The notes under the pieces are model-generated. The model was not told where the DNA came from and did no database searches. It saw nothing but the letters and a program-made list of their open reading frames with translations. Made by a program: the position numbers and the translations under genes. Below, piece by piece: positions 1 through 64,000 of a stretch of DNA of 64,000 bases; positions within the stretch are counted from its first letter, which is position 1; every line of letters begins with the position of its first letter. The stretch lies in the NCBI RefSeq assembly GCF_044324875.1, contig NZ_CP172185.1. One strand, written 5' to 3'. The DNA is from Escherichia coli (GTDB lineage Bacteria > Pseudomonadota > Gammaproteobacteria > Enterobacterales > Enterobacteriaceae).

Positions 1-845
1 TTTATCGTTTTCGTGGTGCCAGCAATGCACTGTCGCATCCGGCACTGAACGGGGCGGACCGTCTCTGGCTGACGCAAAGTTTTCGTTTTGGTCCTGCCGT
101 GGCCGGGGTGGCCAGCCAGTTACTGAAGCGTGCCGGCGAGAGCCGTGAGGTGACCGGCAGGGGCGGGGATGATGAAGTGCTGACGGCAGGTGAAATGCGT
201 GCGCGCGTGAAGGCAGGGAAGATGACCGGTCACAGGGCGATACTGAGCCGGACGGTGGCCGGTGTGATTGGCACCGCACTGATGGCGGCAATGCGTGGCA
301 GGAAGGTTTACTGGGTGGGGGGCATTGAAGGCTACAGAACGGAGGCACTGGAAGATCTTTACTGGTTTCAGATGGATATGCCGGAGCGGATGCACAGTGA
401 CAGACTGCGGAAGGACTACCGGGGTTTTGACGAGTACCGTCATATTGCGAAGGTGACGAAGGATGTGGAAATGAATCAGTCCATTCGTCTGCTGGAGCTG
501 TGCTTTCCGCTGCCGAAGAAACTCGAACTTCTCAGAAAGCACACCGTCACGAATGAACAGGAGGCGGATATCACGGTCTCAACGGCACACCGCAGTAAGG
601 GACTGGAGTGGTCACTGGTGGTACTCGATGATGATTTTCAGGATATCACCGACCCGCTGATAAGCGAGCAGGAGCGGCGGGATGAAACCAATCTGCTCTA
701 TGTGGCGGTCACCCGGGCGCGCAGAACGCTGGTTCTCAATGAACTCATGCAGCAGCTGACGGAAGCTGCCGGCGATGGTGGTGCACCCGGAAACGCGCCG
801 GTGCAGGGGAAGGAAGACGATGGTGTGGAGGGAGAGGATGTTTAA
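1..845 (+). CDS. Superfamily-1 (UvrD/RecD-like) DNA helicase, C-terminal part; 5' end lies outside the window
   Basis: Frame 3 is open from position 3 to the stop at 843-845. Translation shows SF1 motifs: YRFRGA (motif III-like) at the window edge, TAHRSKGLEW (motif V), YVAVTRAR (motif VI). Confidence 0.6.
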   Translation, partial: YRFRGASNALSHPALNGADRLWLTQSFRFGPAVAGVASQLLKRAGESREVTGRGGDDEVLTAGEMRARVKAGKMTGHRAILSRTVAGVIGTALMAAMRGRKVYWVGGIEGYRTEALEDLYWFQMDMPERMHSDRLRKDYRGFDEYRHIAKVTKDVEMNQSIRLLELCFPLPKKLELLRKHTVTNEQEADITVSTAHRSKGLEWSLVVLDDDFQDITDPLISEQERRDETNLLYVAVTRARRTLVLNELMQQLTEAAGDGGAPGNAPVQGKEDDGVEGEDV

Positions 846-2367
846 GCGGTTCAGACGTATGCTGCCCGGCACAAAGGGCACGGAGCCTGGCGTGGTCGCG
901 CCGGTGATACCGGCAGGGTTTTATGCGCCGCTCACGGCAGAGGCACTGTTATCACCAGAGCACAGGGAGCTGAGGCTCAGGCAGGTCTGGGATAACAATC
1001 CGATGCCCCGTGATGTATACGACAGGATGTGCCTTGAACCACTCAGCCGGCTGCTGCTGAACACCCAGAACGTCCCGGCAACACGGGAAGGACGGTGGTC
1101 CCGTGCCGGTGGATTTGGTGATCTGACGGTACTGTACACCACGTATGCCGTTCGTCTGGCAAGAGGGTACATGTTTCCACCGGATGCGACCCCGGAAGAC
1201 CAGGCGGCTCAGGCCGCAGTCTGGCATGCGGTGATTTTCTGGTCAGCGCTGTTTTACCACCTGCCCCTGCTGGCGCACCTTGAGGGGGAACTGCTGAGTG
1301 GGCGGGGCTGGCAGCCAGGAATTTCTGTGCCTGACGAACCTTTCCGTTTCCGGTTCAGGAAGACGGCGCCGCAGGGTACGGAAGCGCAACAACTTGCGGC
1401 CCTGACTGCCGGCACGCTGTTACCGGACGGCGCAACGGCCTGGCTTGTGACGGCGCCGGGCGCACTGCAGAATCTGGCCGGGGCGCTCTGGCATCAGCAT
1501 CCCGGGATGGCGCTGATTCGTGATGTGCTGCAGGAAGCGGCAAGGCAGACAGAGAGTCCGCTGAATACCTGCGCTGTCACTGCGCCGGTTACTGCGGAGG
1601 CTTCAGCAGACATCCGTCCTGCTGACCCGGTGGTGACCGGCAGCACGGACAGTGTGGTGGCAGTCACTGAGGTGCAGCCGGCAGAGGAGGTGAAGACTGA
1701 GAGCGTGCAGACAGAGACTGAAGGTGGTGGTGAGTCCGCCGGGGCGTCAGAGGTGCCGTCCGCACAGCAGGAACTGACGGTTCAGACAGCGCCAGTGGTG
1801 ACGGCAGATGATGAAGCGGTCAGTGCTGCTCCTGCGGATCAGGACACAGCAATGCTGCTGAGTCTTTTTTCAGCAGATGAGTCCGAAACTGCTGAACCTG
1901 AAAACAGTATTAAATCGTCAGCCGATCGGGACGGCCAAAGTGACGTACCGGCAGTACAGGGAGAACAAACCAGCGTTATTTATCCGGAGGGCGAAGCAGA
2001 TACGGAAGAGGTGGATTTTATTACTTGGCTGAAATCGGGGTTGTCATCGGGGATGATTGAAATAAATACACCTTCCGCGAGAGTGCATTGTATTGCGGGG
2101 TATGTTTTTTTGTGTGTCCCGGATATTTTTTATCTGTATCAGAAAATGACGGGAAGCCGTCGTGACCGCAGGAGTGTTCAGGCGTTGTTTGAACGTTCCC
2201 GTATTCACAAAATCCGGGAAGGTGAGCGTTTTTTCAGCCTGCATCTGTATAGTGTACCTGACAGAACAGGGAGTTATAAAGCTGTAAGCGGATATCTGGT
2301 TAAAAGCCGTTATCTGTGTGGTTATAACGCAGTGCCCGGGGACAGTGAATACATTGCTTTTCCATAA
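775..2367 (+). CDS. Hypothetical island protein (530 aa as maximal ORF) with a central acidic low-complexity linker
   Basis: Long ORF overlapping the helicase stop. Alternative starts at 820 (AGGAAG upstream) or 838. Residues ~265-420 are rich in T/E/A/V/S/D/Q; N- and C-terminal parts look globular. No family recognised from memory. Confidence 0.5.
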   Translation: MVVHPETRRCRGRKTMVWRERMFKRFRRMLPGTKGTEPGVVAPVIPAGFYAPLTAEALLSPEHRELRLRQVWDNNPMPRDVYDRMCLEPLSRLLLNTQNVPATREGRWSRAGGFGDLTVLYTTYAVRLARGYMFPPDATPEDQAAQAAVWHAVIFWSALFYHLPLLAHLEGELLSGRGWQPGISVPDEPFRFRFRKTAPQGTEAQQLAALTAGTLLPDGATAWLVTAPGALQNLAGALWHQHPGMALIRDVLQEAARQTESPLNTCAVTAPVTAEASADIRPADPVVTGSTDSVVAVTEVQPAEEVKTESVQTETEGGGESAGASEVPSAQQELTVQTAPVVTADDEAVSAAPADQDTAMLLSLFSADESETAEPENSIKSSADRDGQSDVPAVQGEQTSVIYPEGEADTEEVDFITWLKSGLSSGMIEINTPSARVHCIAGYVFLCVPDIFYLYQKMTGSRRDRRSVQALFERSRIHKIREGERFFSLHLYSVPDRTGSYKAVSGYLVKSRYLCGYNAVPGDSEYIAFP

Positions 2368-2397
2368 CAGCACCGGGTCATTCATCCGTTCAGGGAG

Positions 2398-3510
2398 ATG
2401 TATTCCCCTATGAAGAAAGATGTCGAAAAAATAACGTGGGAGGAATTACTCTTTGAGTACTTCCTTGAGAAAAATCTTAAACCTGATACTGAACACAGCT
2501 ACCGCAAAGTTGTCCGTCTGTTTGATAAGTTCCTGGGCGGTGATTCCTGGCCCGGCGATGTCACACCGAGAGACATTCAGCGATGGCGACGTCATATGCT
2601 TAAAGATCAGGGGCGTTCAGTAAACACCTGGAATAACAGAGTGTCACATCTCCGACCGCTCCTGGCGCTTGGGATCAAGAAAAAGTGGTTACCACAGACG
2701 GAAAATCCGCTTGATGGCACTTCAGTGCCCGGGGCATCAAAACAGAAAAAAACGCTCACTGATAAAGAGATGGTCAGGATTTACCGTACAGTTCAGGCTT
2801 TTGCTGAAGCTGAGGCCAATAAGATGGTGATCTGTGACAGGCGGCGCAATGCGATGTACCCTGCATGGTACTGGCTGATCGTGCTGGATACGCTGCGCTT
2901 CACGGGGATGCGTTTTAACCAGCTGAAACATATCAGGCTGAAGGATATTCATGAGGATGAGGCGGTGATTACCCTTCAGCTGGAAGGGAGTAAAACCCGA
3001 CGTGAATGGCGTGTGCCGATTGTGGAATCGTTACGACTTTCACTGAAACATCTTATTGAGTGCGCCCGTGTCAATGGTGCGTCGGATAATGACTATCTCT
3101 TTGATGTCTGCCTGTACAGCGAGCATTACAGTCCCGGGAAATACCAGTACTGTGCCAAAAGAGCGCATCAGTCGGTCAAATCTTTTTTCCGCAGACTGAG
3201 CCGTGAATGTGGTTTTTTTGTCTCGTCACACAGATTCAGACACACACTGGCAACAAAGCTGATGGCGGCACCGGAGCGTAATCTGCACATGGTCAAATCC
3301 ATTCTGGGGCACAGGAGTGTTGCCACCACCATGGAGTATATTGATTTTTCGGTGGAAGTTGCTGCTGAGGCACTGGAGGCTGAACTCGGTTTATCCACGG
3401 ATGAGGCGACAAAAAGACGGATTAAAGAGGCGAAAAAACGCCGTGAGGCCAGTACCGGGAAAAAGGAAAAACAGGAAAGTTCTGGAGGGGAACTTTCTGA
3501 CAAGGAATAA
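2398..3510 (+). CDS. int: Tyrosine-type site-specific recombinase / integrase
   Basis: Conserved catalytic signature: TGMR..QL (box I Arg), HRFRHT (HxxR), GHRSVATTMEY (His and Tyr nucleophile). Adjacent to the tRNA 3' end. Start may be the ATG at 2410. Confidence 0.8.
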   Translation: MYSPMKKDVEKITWEELLFEYFLEKNLKPDTEHSYRKVVRLFDKFLGGDSWPGDVTPRDIQRWRRHMLKDQGRSVNTWNNRVSHLRPLLALGIKKKWLPQTENPLDGTSVPGASKQKKTLTDKEMVRIYRTVQAFAEAEANKMVICDRRRNAMYPAWYWLIVLDTLRFTGMRFNQLKHIRLKDIHEDEAVITLQLEGSKTRREWRVPIVESLRLSLKHLIECARVNGASDNDYLFDVCLYSEHYSPGKYQYCAKRAHQSVKSFFRRLSRECGFFVSSHRFRHTLATKLMAAPERNLHMVKSILGHRSVATTMEYIDFSVEVAAEALEAELGLSTDEATKRRIKEAKKRREASTGKKEKQESSGGELSDKE

Positions 3511-3713
3511 ACATGCTTGACATCGGACCAGAATGGTGTAAGCATTTTTGCGTATGCGAGAGCGTGACACCTGTTACCAGCAGGTGCCACGCTTGAGGAT
3601 ACGATACTGAAACCACAGTGTAACCAGACTTACACGGAGATTTCGTTATGACCGGATCCTGTATTAGACGCCCGTTAAGGATCTCATCCCTTAACCAGCG
3701 TACTTTGATGCGT

Positions 3714-3789
3714 TTGGTGCCCGGAGGCGGAATCGAACCACCGACACGGGGATTTTCAATCCCCTGCTCTACCGACTGAGCTATCCGGG
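3714..3789 (-). tRNA. pheV: tRNA-Phe (GAA anticodon), 76 nt including CCA
   Basis: Reverse complement is GCCCGGATAGCTCAGTCGGTAGAGCAGGGGATTGAAAATCCCCGTGTCGGTGGTTCGATTCCGCCTCCGGGCACCA. Matches E. coli tRNA-Phe except for the T-stem (see findings). Confidence 0.9.
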
Positions 3790-3895
3790 CAACGGGGCGC
3801 ATTAAACCTGATTCGCCTCGTCTCGTCAATCAAATTTCTTCAATTTACTGCAGACTGCACAATCTATCATCACTTTGCCGCTAATGCACGCATTG

Positions 3896-4624
3896 TCAGG
3901 CAAACCAGGCGGTCCAGGCGGCGGAAAGCGGCATTGCCAGAAGGAGTGCTGGAAGCATGTTGACCACCGGGAACATTTTAATGCCACAGATGCGTAATCC
4001 GGTTGCCAGCAGCAATAAACCGCCTACGGCGCTGAAGTCTGCCATCATCGACGGTGTGGTCAGCGGTAATATCAGCGCGGCAGCCCACGCCAGCGTTAAC
4101 TGGATGATCAGTAATGGGATACTAATTACCGACACCGCAATACCCAACGAGCAGGCGAAGATCATCGCCGTAAAGAAATCGAGAAATGACTTGGCGATTA
4201 AAATACTCGGATCGCCGGTCATCCCTTCGTTCATCGCCCCGAAGATCCCGGTGCCGCTGGCGCAAAACAGGACAATAATCGCGACATAATTCTGAATAAA
4301 AGATTCATGCGCTGGCTTCTTACGTGAGTGGCGAAACAGATTTTGTGCTTTGGTGACCGCGGTATTGACGCCTTTTTCCAGCAGACAAATTTCGCCGATT
4401 AATGCACCGAGTAAGGTTGCTAACACCATCGCCGGAAGGTTGGCGCATTTCACCACCAGTAAAATACCAATCCCCAGCGATGCCAGACCAAAAATTGATG
4501 TCATGGAGACGCGGATACGTTCCGGTAAGCGTTGGCTAAGGAGTGCACCGAGAACGCCACCCAGTAATACTGCACTTGCGTTGATAAAAGGACCGATGAC
4601 CACAAGAGTTCCTGTTAGCTGCAT
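3896..4624 (-). CDS. yqgA: Inner-membrane protein YqgA (DUF554 family)
   Basis: Polytopic hydrophobic ORF; sequence and position match K-12 YqgA between pheV and speC. Confidence 0.85.
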   Translation of the reverse strand: MQLTGTLVVIGPFINASAVLLGGVLGALLSQRLPERIRVSMTSIFGLASLGIGILLVVKCANLPAMVLATLLGALIGEICLLEKGVNTAVTKAQNLFRHSRKKPAHESFIQNYVAIIVLFCASGTGIFGAMNEGMTGDPSILIAKSFLDFFTAMIFACSLGIAVSVISIPLLIIQLTLAWAAALILPLTTPSMMADFSAVGGLLLLATGLRICGIKMFPVVNMLPALLLAMPLSAAWTAWFA

Positions 4625-48756: not shown

Positions 48757-48857
48757 GCCTGATGCGCTACGCTTATCAGGCCTACACGTATCCTGCAATA
48801 TATTGAATTCGCAGGTTTTTGTAGGCCGGATAAGGCGTTCACGCCGCATCCGGCATG
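48757..48857. repeat. REP/BIME cluster
   Basis: GCCTGATGCGCTACGCTTATCAGGCCTACA and GTAGGCCGGATAAGGCGTTCACGCCGCATCCGGCA units. Confidence 0.6.
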
Positions 48858-62989: not shown

Positions 62990-63140
62990 ACGATGGCAGG
63001 GCAGCATGGTGCTGTAACGGTAAAGCCCTCACCGAAGCGAGGGCTTGAAGGAGAAGGGTTATGATGCGACTTGTCATCATACTGATTGTACTGTTACTCA
63101 TAAGTTTCCCAGCTTATTAACAGTCAGTCTCAGGGGAGGA
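62990..63140 (-). ncRNA. sibC: Antisense antitoxin sRNA SibC (approximate boundaries)
   Basis: Inferred from the ibsC position and the known antisense arrangement; ends not determinable by eye. Confidence 0.35.
63061..63120 (+). CDS. ibsC: Type I toxin small hydrophobic peptide IbsC (19 aa)
   Basis: MMRLVIILIVLLLISFPAY with RBS GGAG upstream, in the serA–ygfA spacer where the sibC/ibsC locus lies in E. coli. Confidence 0.6.
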   Translation: MMRLVIILIVLLLISFPAY

Positions 63141-63220
63141 GTCATCCTCCCTTACCCTTACTCACTAAATTAGGTTAAAGAATCAACGATGTCAATCAGG
63201 GCGATGCAGGTGTGTCGCCC

Positions 63221-63841: not shown

Positions 63842-64000
63842 AGGGAATCTCCGAGATGCCGCCGCAGGCTGTAACCCTTGAACCCTTGGTTCAAGGTGAA
63901 TGTGTCGTCGCAGTTTTAAGGCTTCTCGGACGGACCGAGCATGCTCACCAACCGCGGAGCGCCACATTCTTGTGGTATGAAATATCGGCTCAGGGGACTG
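63842..64000 (-). ncRNA. ssrS: 6S RNA, 3' 159 nt (5' end beyond the window)
   Basis: Reverse complement matches the 6S RNA sequence ...CAGUCCCCUGAGCCGAUAUUUCAUACCACAAGAAUGUGGCGCUCCGCGGUUGGUGAGCAUGCUCGG...GGAGAUUCCCU; directly upstream of ygfA as in E. coli. Confidence 0.8.

Follow-up and report, generated by a model that had tools for sequence, protein, structure and literature searches.

Processes that begin at a nick recruit helicases of superfamily 1A (SF1A), with PcrA serving rolling-circle plasmids and Rep serving phiX174 (gpA). The helicase of the F plasmid TraI protein belongs to superfamily 1B (SF1B), is RecD-like and moves 5'-3'. MOBH relaxases drive the transfer of IncC resistance plasmids, SXT-like elements, SPI-7 and PAPI-1, and to our knowledge it is not known how these relaxases obtain a helicase. 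They are without a helicase domain of their own (PMC6736028). For the integrative and conjugative element (ICE) ICEBs1 the requirement is for PcrA plus HelP (PMC5812530). Human F-box DNA helicase 1 (FBH1, also FBXO18) is a non-canonical SF1A helicase with a divergent 2B subdomain that does not hold the duplex and with no separation pin; its 1B subdomain is small and bears a basic junction-binding motif, and the enzyme dismantles RAD51 filaments and reverses or remodels replication forks (PMC12946210, a structure paper of 2026).

The gene considered here begins a 64,000-nucleotide stretch of Escherichia coli DNA (contig NZ_CP172185.1 of RefSeq assembly GCF_044324875.1; hereafter the window) and belongs to the backbone of an ~85-kb ICE of the SPI-7/PAPI-1/PFGI-1 type (MOBH, MPF_G, type IVb pilus) located at pheV. 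Together with the relaxase gene traI and an integrase gene it forms one co-directional unit at the attR end of this island. We propose, with a probability of about 0.5, that the best reading of the locus is an element-encoded 3'-5' helicase that would unwind the island DNA from the relaxase nick. Both the helicase annotation and the island type were known already; the fragment in the window comes from an annotated gene in the backbone of a known conjugative-island family and is no new defence gene or odd cargo. A first interpretation made from the letters of the window alone (the sequence-only reading) had described a compact superfamily 1 (SF1) helicase carried as cargo on a genomic island. 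The compact helicase and the island are borne out, but the term cargo has to be given up, since the gene belongs to the backbone helicase-traI-int unit.

Class and fold of the helicase

On the plus strand of the window, frame 3 is open from position 3 to a TAA at 843-845 and encodes residues 223-502 of a 502-aa helicase, which is the C-terminal 280 codons plus the stop, or 56% of the protein. The full length was recovered from E. coli TUM1886 (NZ_CP128970.1), whose chromosome shows 100% identity to the first 4 kb of the window: there the counterpart of the fragment, itself 100% identical, makes up the 3' portion of a 1509-nt gene whose 502-aa product (WP_073268020.1) is annotated in RefSeq as 'UvrD-helicase domain-containing protein'. 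The frame and the motifs YRFRGA, TAHRSKGLEW and YVAVTRAR are exactly as the sequence-only reading had given them, and they represent motifs III, V and VI (Table 1). In an alignment of 30 family members, motif I GTGKT (K30), motif II DEAQD (D192/E193), R250 of motif IV, H418, K421 and G422 of motif V and Y455, V456 and R460 of motif VI are invariant, while Q220, R226 and G227 of motif III are invariant or nearly so. With its open reading frame (ORF) intact and its catalytic motif residues conserved, the gene looks functional on sequence grounds. The exact helicase sequence is present on 228 contigs, and truncated forms of 432 aa (P0074) occur in some genomes.

Searches of the full-length protein with Pfam returned AAA_19, UvrD-helicase, UvrD_C and UvrD_C_2, and no relaxase, nuclease or extra ATPase domain at either end. 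Chance similarity can be excluded because of the Pfam E values (1e-8 to 2e-10 for UvrD_C, UvrD_C_2 and UvrD-helicase), the 4324 homologues found in a word-indexed search and the FBH1 match described below. The protein is a stand-alone SF1A helicase of the UvrD family, in a compact, FBH1-like branch. NCBIfam profiles for helicase IV, PcrA, UvrD, Rep and RecB reach 31-44 bits against cut-offs of 543-1168, which is similarity at the level of motifs only. The UvrD, PcrA and Rep profiles score 42-43 bits (E 1e-11), compared with 16.7 bits for RecD2 (E 0.0016, cut-off 500). Because of these scores we assign the protein to SF1A, UvrD-type, and regard it as neither RecD-like nor an orthologue of a housekeeping helicase. 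A RecD-like (SF1B) enzyme was ruled out by the RecD2 score, by the fold search, in which no RecD-type chain was among the top Foldseek matches, and by a Dda-like PHROG that reaches only 30 bits. Orthology to UvrD, Rep, PcrA or helicase IV was ruled out by scores far under the equivalog cut-offs. The description of the motifs as 'UvrD/RecD-like' therefore holds in its first half and fails in its second. From class membership alone, the protein would be expected to translocate 3'-5' on single-stranded DNA.

The compactness of the protein had been estimated as about 200 residues between motif III and motif V, and the measured distance from Y223 to T416 is 193. The block of motifs II-IV is separated from the block of motifs V-VI by ~137 aa, compared with 186-255 aa in 12 canonical UvrD-like ORFs, and the 1B region is ~25 aa shorter than in the same 12. 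An AlphaFold (AF2) model with a mean confidence (pLDDT) of 92.5, disordered only in the last 23 residues, has the four-subdomain fold 1A/1B/2A/2B with 1B and 2B shortened. At the position of 2B the model has an all-helical insert, residues ~329-405. The 2B subdomain of UvrD is ~170 aa, so that in the model 2B is about half-size but present; the large 2B insertion had been thought to be missing, and it is the reduced size, not the absence, that is upheld.

By sequence comparison the nearest characterised relative of the island helicase is, unexpectedly, human FBH1. It was the sole strong sequence match in the PDB (198 bits, E 1.9e-57), with query residues 5-480 aligned to chain residues 370-873, which is the whole helicase core, whereas UvrD, PcrA and Rep chains scored 27-29 bits in the same search. 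The fold search gave the same ranking. FBH1, UvrD, Rep, PcrA and AdnB were all matched by the model at a Foldseek probability of 1.00; the template modelling (TM) score was 0.80 for FBH1 (PDB 9xzj, 9xzm; E 6e-38, 29% identity), ~0.6 for UvrD, Rep and PcrA (UvrD 0.62; E ~1e-18) and 0.36 for GajB (8sm3_B; E 5e-9). FBH1 and the island protein are both compact SF1A helicases: their 1B and 2B subdomains are small, and in 1B an invariant glycine is followed by a basic patch. This patch, the junction-binding motif of FBH1, is partly kept in the family: of 30 sequences, 17 have K or R at position 82 and 29 have one of the two at position 87. The two proteins differ in that the island helicase lacks the F-box (none was found by Pfam in the 502 aa), the N-terminal helical domain and the zinc ribbon, and in that it is bacterial, resides on a mobile element and has a relaxase as its neighbour.

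Helicases of the eukaryotic type that do carry an F-box were found among the 150 best representatives, out of 1.84 billion, for the island helicase as query (P0227, P0255 and other long ones); P0227, a metagenomic member, combines an F-box (Pfam E 5e-8) with the helicase. For short members of 470-530 aa (source organisms unchecked), scores against residues 370-873 of human FBH1 rise to 310 bits. A neighbour-joining tree was built from 171 sequences with Poisson distances and 100 bootstraps. In it, the canonical UvrD-like outgroup falls outside the family (100/100) and all conjugation-context helicases form one clade of 51 leaves (92/100). The FBH1 orthologues nest among the short members and are excluded from the conjugation clade (97/100; the tree is a rough one and the taxonomy was not checked). 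The helicase core of FBH1 seems, from these sequences, to belong to a prokaryotic family that is rich in mobile elements.

The gene pair with traI and its distribution

The helicase gene immediately precedes traI and is linked to it translationally. The ATG of traI, at position 838, lies inside the final codons of the helicase gene with GGAGG upstream, producing an overlap of 8 nt with the helicase stop. The encoded relaxase scores 193.1 bits with TIGR03760, 'integrating conjugative element relaxase, PFGI-1 class', for which the cut-off is 161.4. The overlap is kept elsewhere: it measures 7-8 nt at loci L093, L099 and L105 and 53 nt at L004, and it is also found in avian pathogenic E. coli (APEC) strains. 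An overlapping helicase followed by TraI_2 and an integrase is also the order in Yersinia (63% identity) and in the L004 lineage (59%), and an overlapping helicase-TraI pair is present on an E. coli IncF plasmid (71%) with no integrase annotated beside it.

Within traI, however, there is a boundary. In 28 of the 36 E. coli genomes that carry the pair, similarity ends at query position 2561, corresponding to window position ~1898 in the low-complexity linker of TraI. The GC content is 58-64% at window positions 1-1800 and 48-49% at 1801-3600, with a sharp fall near ~1800-1900, inside traI. In APEC 102026 the pheV site is likewise the one occupied, and the helicase and relaxase domain are the same, but the TraI C-terminus and the integrase are different ones. 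Because of the shared breakpoint and of APEC 102026, the helicase and the relaxase domain can be regarded as one inherited block and the TraI C-terminus and integrase as another. As judged from these alignments, the TraI C-terminal domain is exchanged with the integrase as a block, independently of the helicase and relaxase domain.

The sequence-only reading had named the relaxase-helicase fusions of conjugative elements as one possible home for such a helicase. A conjugative element is indeed the context, with a MOBH relaxase gene overlapping that of the helicase and relatives found in conjugation modules, but a fusion of the MOBF type was ruled out, as the protein has helicase domains only and the relaxase is encoded by a separate, overlapping gene. 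The MOBF fusions (TraI of F and R1, TrwC of R388) are alike in that a relaxase and an SF1 helicase are co-produced for conjugative DNA processing. In the island there are two polypeptides, the relaxase is of the MOBH type (HD/alternative-3H) and not HUH, and the helicase is SF1A, for which 3'-5' movement would be expected, in contrast to the SF1B, RecD-like motor of TraI.

At a coverage of at least 80%, the helicase-traI pair was found in 36 of 5426 complete E. coli genomes, and any match at all in 55 of the 5426. These E. coli occurrences are always chromosomal and always inside the island, and many of the listed strains are from poultry. A housekeeping gene can be excluded because the module is found in only 36-55 of the 5426 genomes; the GC content of the helicase gene is 58%, against ~50% for the core genome. 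The family at large is abundant. A search of 1.84 billion representatives yielded 2907 clusters at 50% identity (E<=1e-30), with most members of 460-530 aa, and a homologue was found in 1894 of 72,556 plasmids, of which 1234 are typed as conjugative.

Relatives at 37-72% identity, for which 14 contexts were inspected, lie in conjugation or plasmid-backbone modules, and 8 of the 12 typed plasmids inspected are MOBH; this association was assessed on those 12 plasmids and a handful of loci, not in a full census. On IncC (MOBH/MPF_F) the helicase gene is directly upstream of traF-traH-traG, an arrangement that recurs in two metagenomic or other lineages at 43-44% identity (untyped). On pUM505, a PAPI-1/pKLC102-like plasmid (MOBH/MPF_G), it stands between traD/TIGR03747 and genes of the type IV secretion system (T4SS). 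These two orthologues, 'uvrD' or 'R55_170 DNA helicase' of IncC and the pUM505/PAPI-1-type protein, are 51% and 42% identical to the island helicase over 93-94% of its length and belong to the same clade. All three are encoded by MOBH elements and in transfer regions, but in IncC and pUM505 the helicase gene is before traF-traH-traG or between traD and the T4SS genes, and not ahead of traI. In the searchable literature we found no functional study of this helicase, the IncC papers merely naming 'uvrD' or 'DNA helicase'; the PAPI-1 'helP' of one preprint was considered and is a different, DEAD-box protein. The helicase gene is 4.6 kb from mobH on IncT (MOBH) and 1.7 kb from mobH-traD on a 292-kb Citrobacter plasmid (MOBH), and is part of the plasmid backbone in Proteus and Azotobacter (MOBH/MPF_F). 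Among the remaining contexts, a relative at 37% identity adjoins SLT and TraL genes (untyped), one on an Acinetobacter plasmid typed as non-mobilizable is within a Dot/Icm cluster, and one in Janthinobacterium (untyped) is between a STY4534-family gene and parAB. Exceptions were met on plasmids of Cupriavidus (MOBP), Vogesella and Piscirickettsia, and a further one, described below, on the Acinetobacter geminorum chromosome.

Family members are also present in 253 phage records, at <=44% identity, including Escherichia, Acinetobacter and Pseudomonas phages (H86-H93), and the helicase matches PHROG 1967 (E 5e-90). The top match in the phage collection is AB571791.1 (Salmonella Typhimurium, 127,710 bp; 51.2% identity), whose identity and score equal those of the IncC plasmid matches; this record is probably a plasmid filed as a phage. 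A few relatives carry additional domains. The member on P. salmonis pPSA1-3 (L102:4501-6363) is a protein of 620 aa with a C-terminal RecX_HTH3 repeat (E 3e-8), and single other members carry HIRAN or HTH_40 (alignment A3); the added domains hint that RecA filaments, or 3' ends at forks, are what such proteins act on. A scan of contigs with back-translated motifs gave at least 79 loci, and of the 79 listed, 8 were true family members (L010-L017), the patterns being generic helicase motifs. When 23 ICE and plasmid reference proteins were compared by phmmer with these eight loci and with L005, L091, L092 and L097, the helicase itself and one weak TraA-like match (L097) were the only hits, the queries being single sequences and the divergence high; two of these loci were characterised by NCBIfam scans.

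What the helicase may do for the island

Since the protein is an intact SF1A motor, is encoded by the element in a gene that overlaps and is co-inherited with that of a helicase-less relaxase, and has relatives in transfer regions that are mostly MOBH, we propose that it acts at the relaxase nick. After excision of the island, TraI would nick its origin of transfer (oriT), and with no helicase domain in the MOBH relaxase the element would provide an SF1A motor of its own. The helicase would load at the nick and move 3'->5' along the non-transferred strand, so that the transfer strand would be peeled off, or rolling-circle replication of the excised circle driven, or both. The element would thereby be independent of host UvrD or Rep. 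Gene identity, intact motifs, fold, island anatomy and the linkage to traI, and to conjugation genes in relatives, are observed; what we infer is in which direction the helicase moves, that it loads at the nick and that transfer requires it. The proposed task is that of PcrA for the ICEBs1 relaxase NicK, and PcrA, Rep and UvrD belong to the same SF1A UvrD family, but they are host housekeeping proteins of 670-725 aa with a full-size 2B, whereas the island helicase is encoded by the element and ~220 aa shorter. A further difference from ICEBs1 is that no HelP-like gene was noticed for the island helicase.

Several observations weigh against a role at the nick. In a core-gene table that draws on studies of ICESb1 and PAPI-1, traI and int are listed as needed for transfer and a UvrD-like helicase is not. 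As described above, the helicase gene is not beside traI in IncC and pUM505, and the wider family extends to the 253 phage records and to plasmids typed as non-mobilizable; from the phage and non-mobilizable occurrences, the ancestral role would be general DNA metabolism, outside the relaxosome. FBH1, as the characterised protein nearest to the helicase, serves no nickase but acts in fork remodelling and in the removal of RAD51 (PMC12946210). The island also encodes a replicative helicase of the DnaB type, and nothing diagnostic of an oriT was found in the 527 bp upstream of the helicase gene.

The chief alternative is a helicase that acts as an anti-recombinase or fork remodeller, in the manner of FBH1, Srs2 or UvrD. 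It would strip RecA from single-stranded island DNA in the donor or from the incoming strand in the recipient, limiting the SOS response and unwanted recombination, or would rescue stalled replication of the excised circle, without any unwinding from a nick. FBH1 is the nearest relative by both sequence and fold (E 1.9e-57, TM 0.80), and the basic junction-binding patch is partly kept. RecX caps RecA filaments, and one plasmid homologue bears the RecX_HTH3 repeat and another member HIRAN, yet these fusions are single cases among 31. Members of the family are also found in lytic phages and beside Par, H-NS, Ter and STY4534 maintenance genes, with no relaxase involved. However, the F-box FBH1 orthologues fall outside the conjugation clade, so that their function is not simply transferable, and joint action with the relaxase more simply explains why the gene overlaps traI and is inherited along with the relaxase domain. 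We consider RecA clearing the less likely of the two roles, although it could coexist with unwinding from the nick.

The sequence-only reading had also raised anti-phage defence, which would make the gene a Gabija GajB-like or similar defence helicase carried as island cargo. GajB is, like the island protein, a UvrD-like helicase of ~500 aa found on mobile islands, PADLOC profiles for GajB reach 67.6 bits, and restriction-modification genes are present elsewhere on the island. These profile matches, however, are fragmentary, consisting of two to three short stretches over the shared helicase motifs, and the TM score of 0.36 to GajB contrasts with 0.80 to FBH1. The locus has no GajA, nuclease or ATPase partner, its neighbours being the pil operon and traI, TraI itself has no PADLOC match, and the relatives at 37-72% identity are in conjugation or plasmid-backbone modules. 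Defence is thus very improbable at this locus, but the suggestion has some merit for the wider family. On the A. geminorum chromosome (L014:9935-12846) a 31%-identical helicase gene overlaps by 4 nt the gene of a PtuA-like ATPase (a match of 143.6 bits, short of the cut-off), the two forming an insert between hisIE and the mrp antiporter genes, and from its sequence this pair has the appearance of a defence-type system of two genes, one of them a helicase of this family. Still more remote is an ordinary housekeeping helicase or an inert, decaying passenger gene, to which the bare annotation as a UvrD-helicase domain-containing protein and the truncated 432-aa forms might point. Against either stand the restriction of the module to 36-55 of 5426 genomes, always in the island and hence without the conserved synteny of a chromosomal housekeeping gene, its GC content, scores far under the UvrD, Rep, PcrA and helicase IV equivalog cut-offs, the intact ORF with conserved motif residues and the exact sequence on 228 contigs. 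Recovery of the full ORF, a profile search and a comparison of neighbourhoods had been suggested as the checks that would decide between such possibilities, and together they decide for conjugation: the 502-aa protein has no N-terminal relaxase, nuclease or extra ATPase domain, and its relatives are found next to transfer genes.

Returning to unwinding at the relaxase nick, this helicase clade, MOBH-linked in most of the contexts inspected, is an obvious candidate for the unwinding partner of MOBH relaxases. More tentatively, and with doubt as to the whole, a dedicated clade of compact FBH1-like SF1A helicases in MOBH elements (SPI-7/PAPI-1-type ICEs, IncC, IncT and related plasmids) might be an unrecognised unwinding partner of helicase-less relaxases, a split counterpart of F TraI with opposite polarity, and the core of eukaryotic FBH1 might at the same time have descended from within this prokaryotic, mobile-element-rich family. 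If this were true, the bacterial proteins would be simple models for the unusual pin-less mechanism of FBH1. The similarity to FBH1 offers small, soluble bacterial relatives for the study of non-canonical SF1A helicases and a lead on the origin of FBH1.

The island and its insertion site

The features of the attR end are given in Table 1. The helicase gene is 2.9 kb from this end of the island, and the integrase gene starts 42 nt after traI. The properties that identify the island as a typical ICE of the SPI-7/PAPI-1/PFGI-1 type are a PFGI-1-class relaxase, MPF_G transfer genes together with replication and partition genes of the SPI-7 type, an integrase at a tRNA gene and att repeats at both ends.

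Table 1. Features of the helicase-traI-integrase unit and of the island ends. Positions are those of the window unless a locus or accession is given.
Feature	Position	Strand	Source or remark
Helicase, N-terminal 222 codons	L001:19337-20002		upstream of the window
Helicase, C-terminal part	3..845	+	translation, 100% match to annotated coding sequence, Pfam, AF2 model
Motif III YRFRGA, residues 223-228	3..20	+	translation
Motif V TAHRSKGLEW, residues 416-425	582..611	+	translation
Motif VI YVAVTRAR, residues 455-462	699..722	+	translation
traI, 509-aa MOBH relaxase (TraI_2, low-complexity linker, TraI_2_C)	838..2367	+	Pfam, NCBIfam TIGR03760
Tyrosine recombinase/integrase, 366 aa	2410..3510	+	RefSeq; XerC/XerD-type profiles below equivalog cut-offs
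attR, 50-nt direct repeat of tRNA 3' part	3715..3764		pattern search and alignment
tRNA-Phe (GAA), pheV, 3' end toward island	3715..3790	-	ARAGORN; Rfam tRNA 69 bits
yqgA, first core chromosomal gene past the island	3896..4603	-	RefSeq
attL copy	NZ_CP128970.1 903971-904020 (L098:23972-24021)		~84.9 kb upstream, outside the window

The attL copy adjoins parA, just beyond the kps capsule locus, and the two att copies are identical at 46 of 50 positions, the four differences being compensatory and in the T stem. The tRNA-Phe beside the island has the T stem GGUGG/CCGCC, whereas the 50-nt remnant at the far end has the native CUUGG/CCGAG, a difference of two compensatory pairs. From this T-stem difference it follows that the functional tRNA-Phe is a hybrid whose 3' part was supplied by the island at integration. 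On the other side, 5425 of the 5426 genomes of E. coli have the yqgA flank.

The content of the island upstream of the window is taken from the RefSeq annotation of the identical genome, TUM1886. On its replication and partition side are ParA, dnaB-PI ('SPI-7-type island replicative DNA helicase'), ParB and proteins of the STY4528 and STY4534 families; topoisomerase III (TopB), ssb, PFL_4669 and traD are further island genes. The transfer genes comprise the 'ICE' proteins TIGR03745-03759, a VirB4-like conjugative ATPase and traG, and a complete type IVb pil operon with a shufflon lies upstream within the island. A DUF1187 gene and this pil operon are the upstream neighbours of the helicase gene, with traI downstream. 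The island also carries the restriction-modification genes mentioned above, ccdAB, ardA and the cargo gene iha. A type III restriction endonuclease, an inner integrase, RelE/HigA and insertion sequence (IS) fragments are frameshifted or partial (L001:1-8100, L009:44369-47283), and given the frameshifted genes the island copy in TUM1886 may, by its sequence, no longer be fully mobile.

Between the DUF1187 gene and the helicase gene is a divergent intergenic region of 527 bp (L001:18811-19336) that contains several short inverted repeats as well as three imperfect direct repeats of 28 nt. A promoter scan of these 527 bp gave fewer matches than shuffled sequences. The region is a candidate regulatory sequence or oriT.

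The remainder of the window, from 3896 to 64000, is ordinary E. coli core, including yqgA, speC, nupG, mutY, ansB, metK, speAB, tkt, pgk, fbaA, the scp operon and serA. It also contains a match to the ES036 small RNA at 48778-48820, a SIB RNA with ibsC at 63045-63195 and the 3' part of 6S RNA at 63844-64000.

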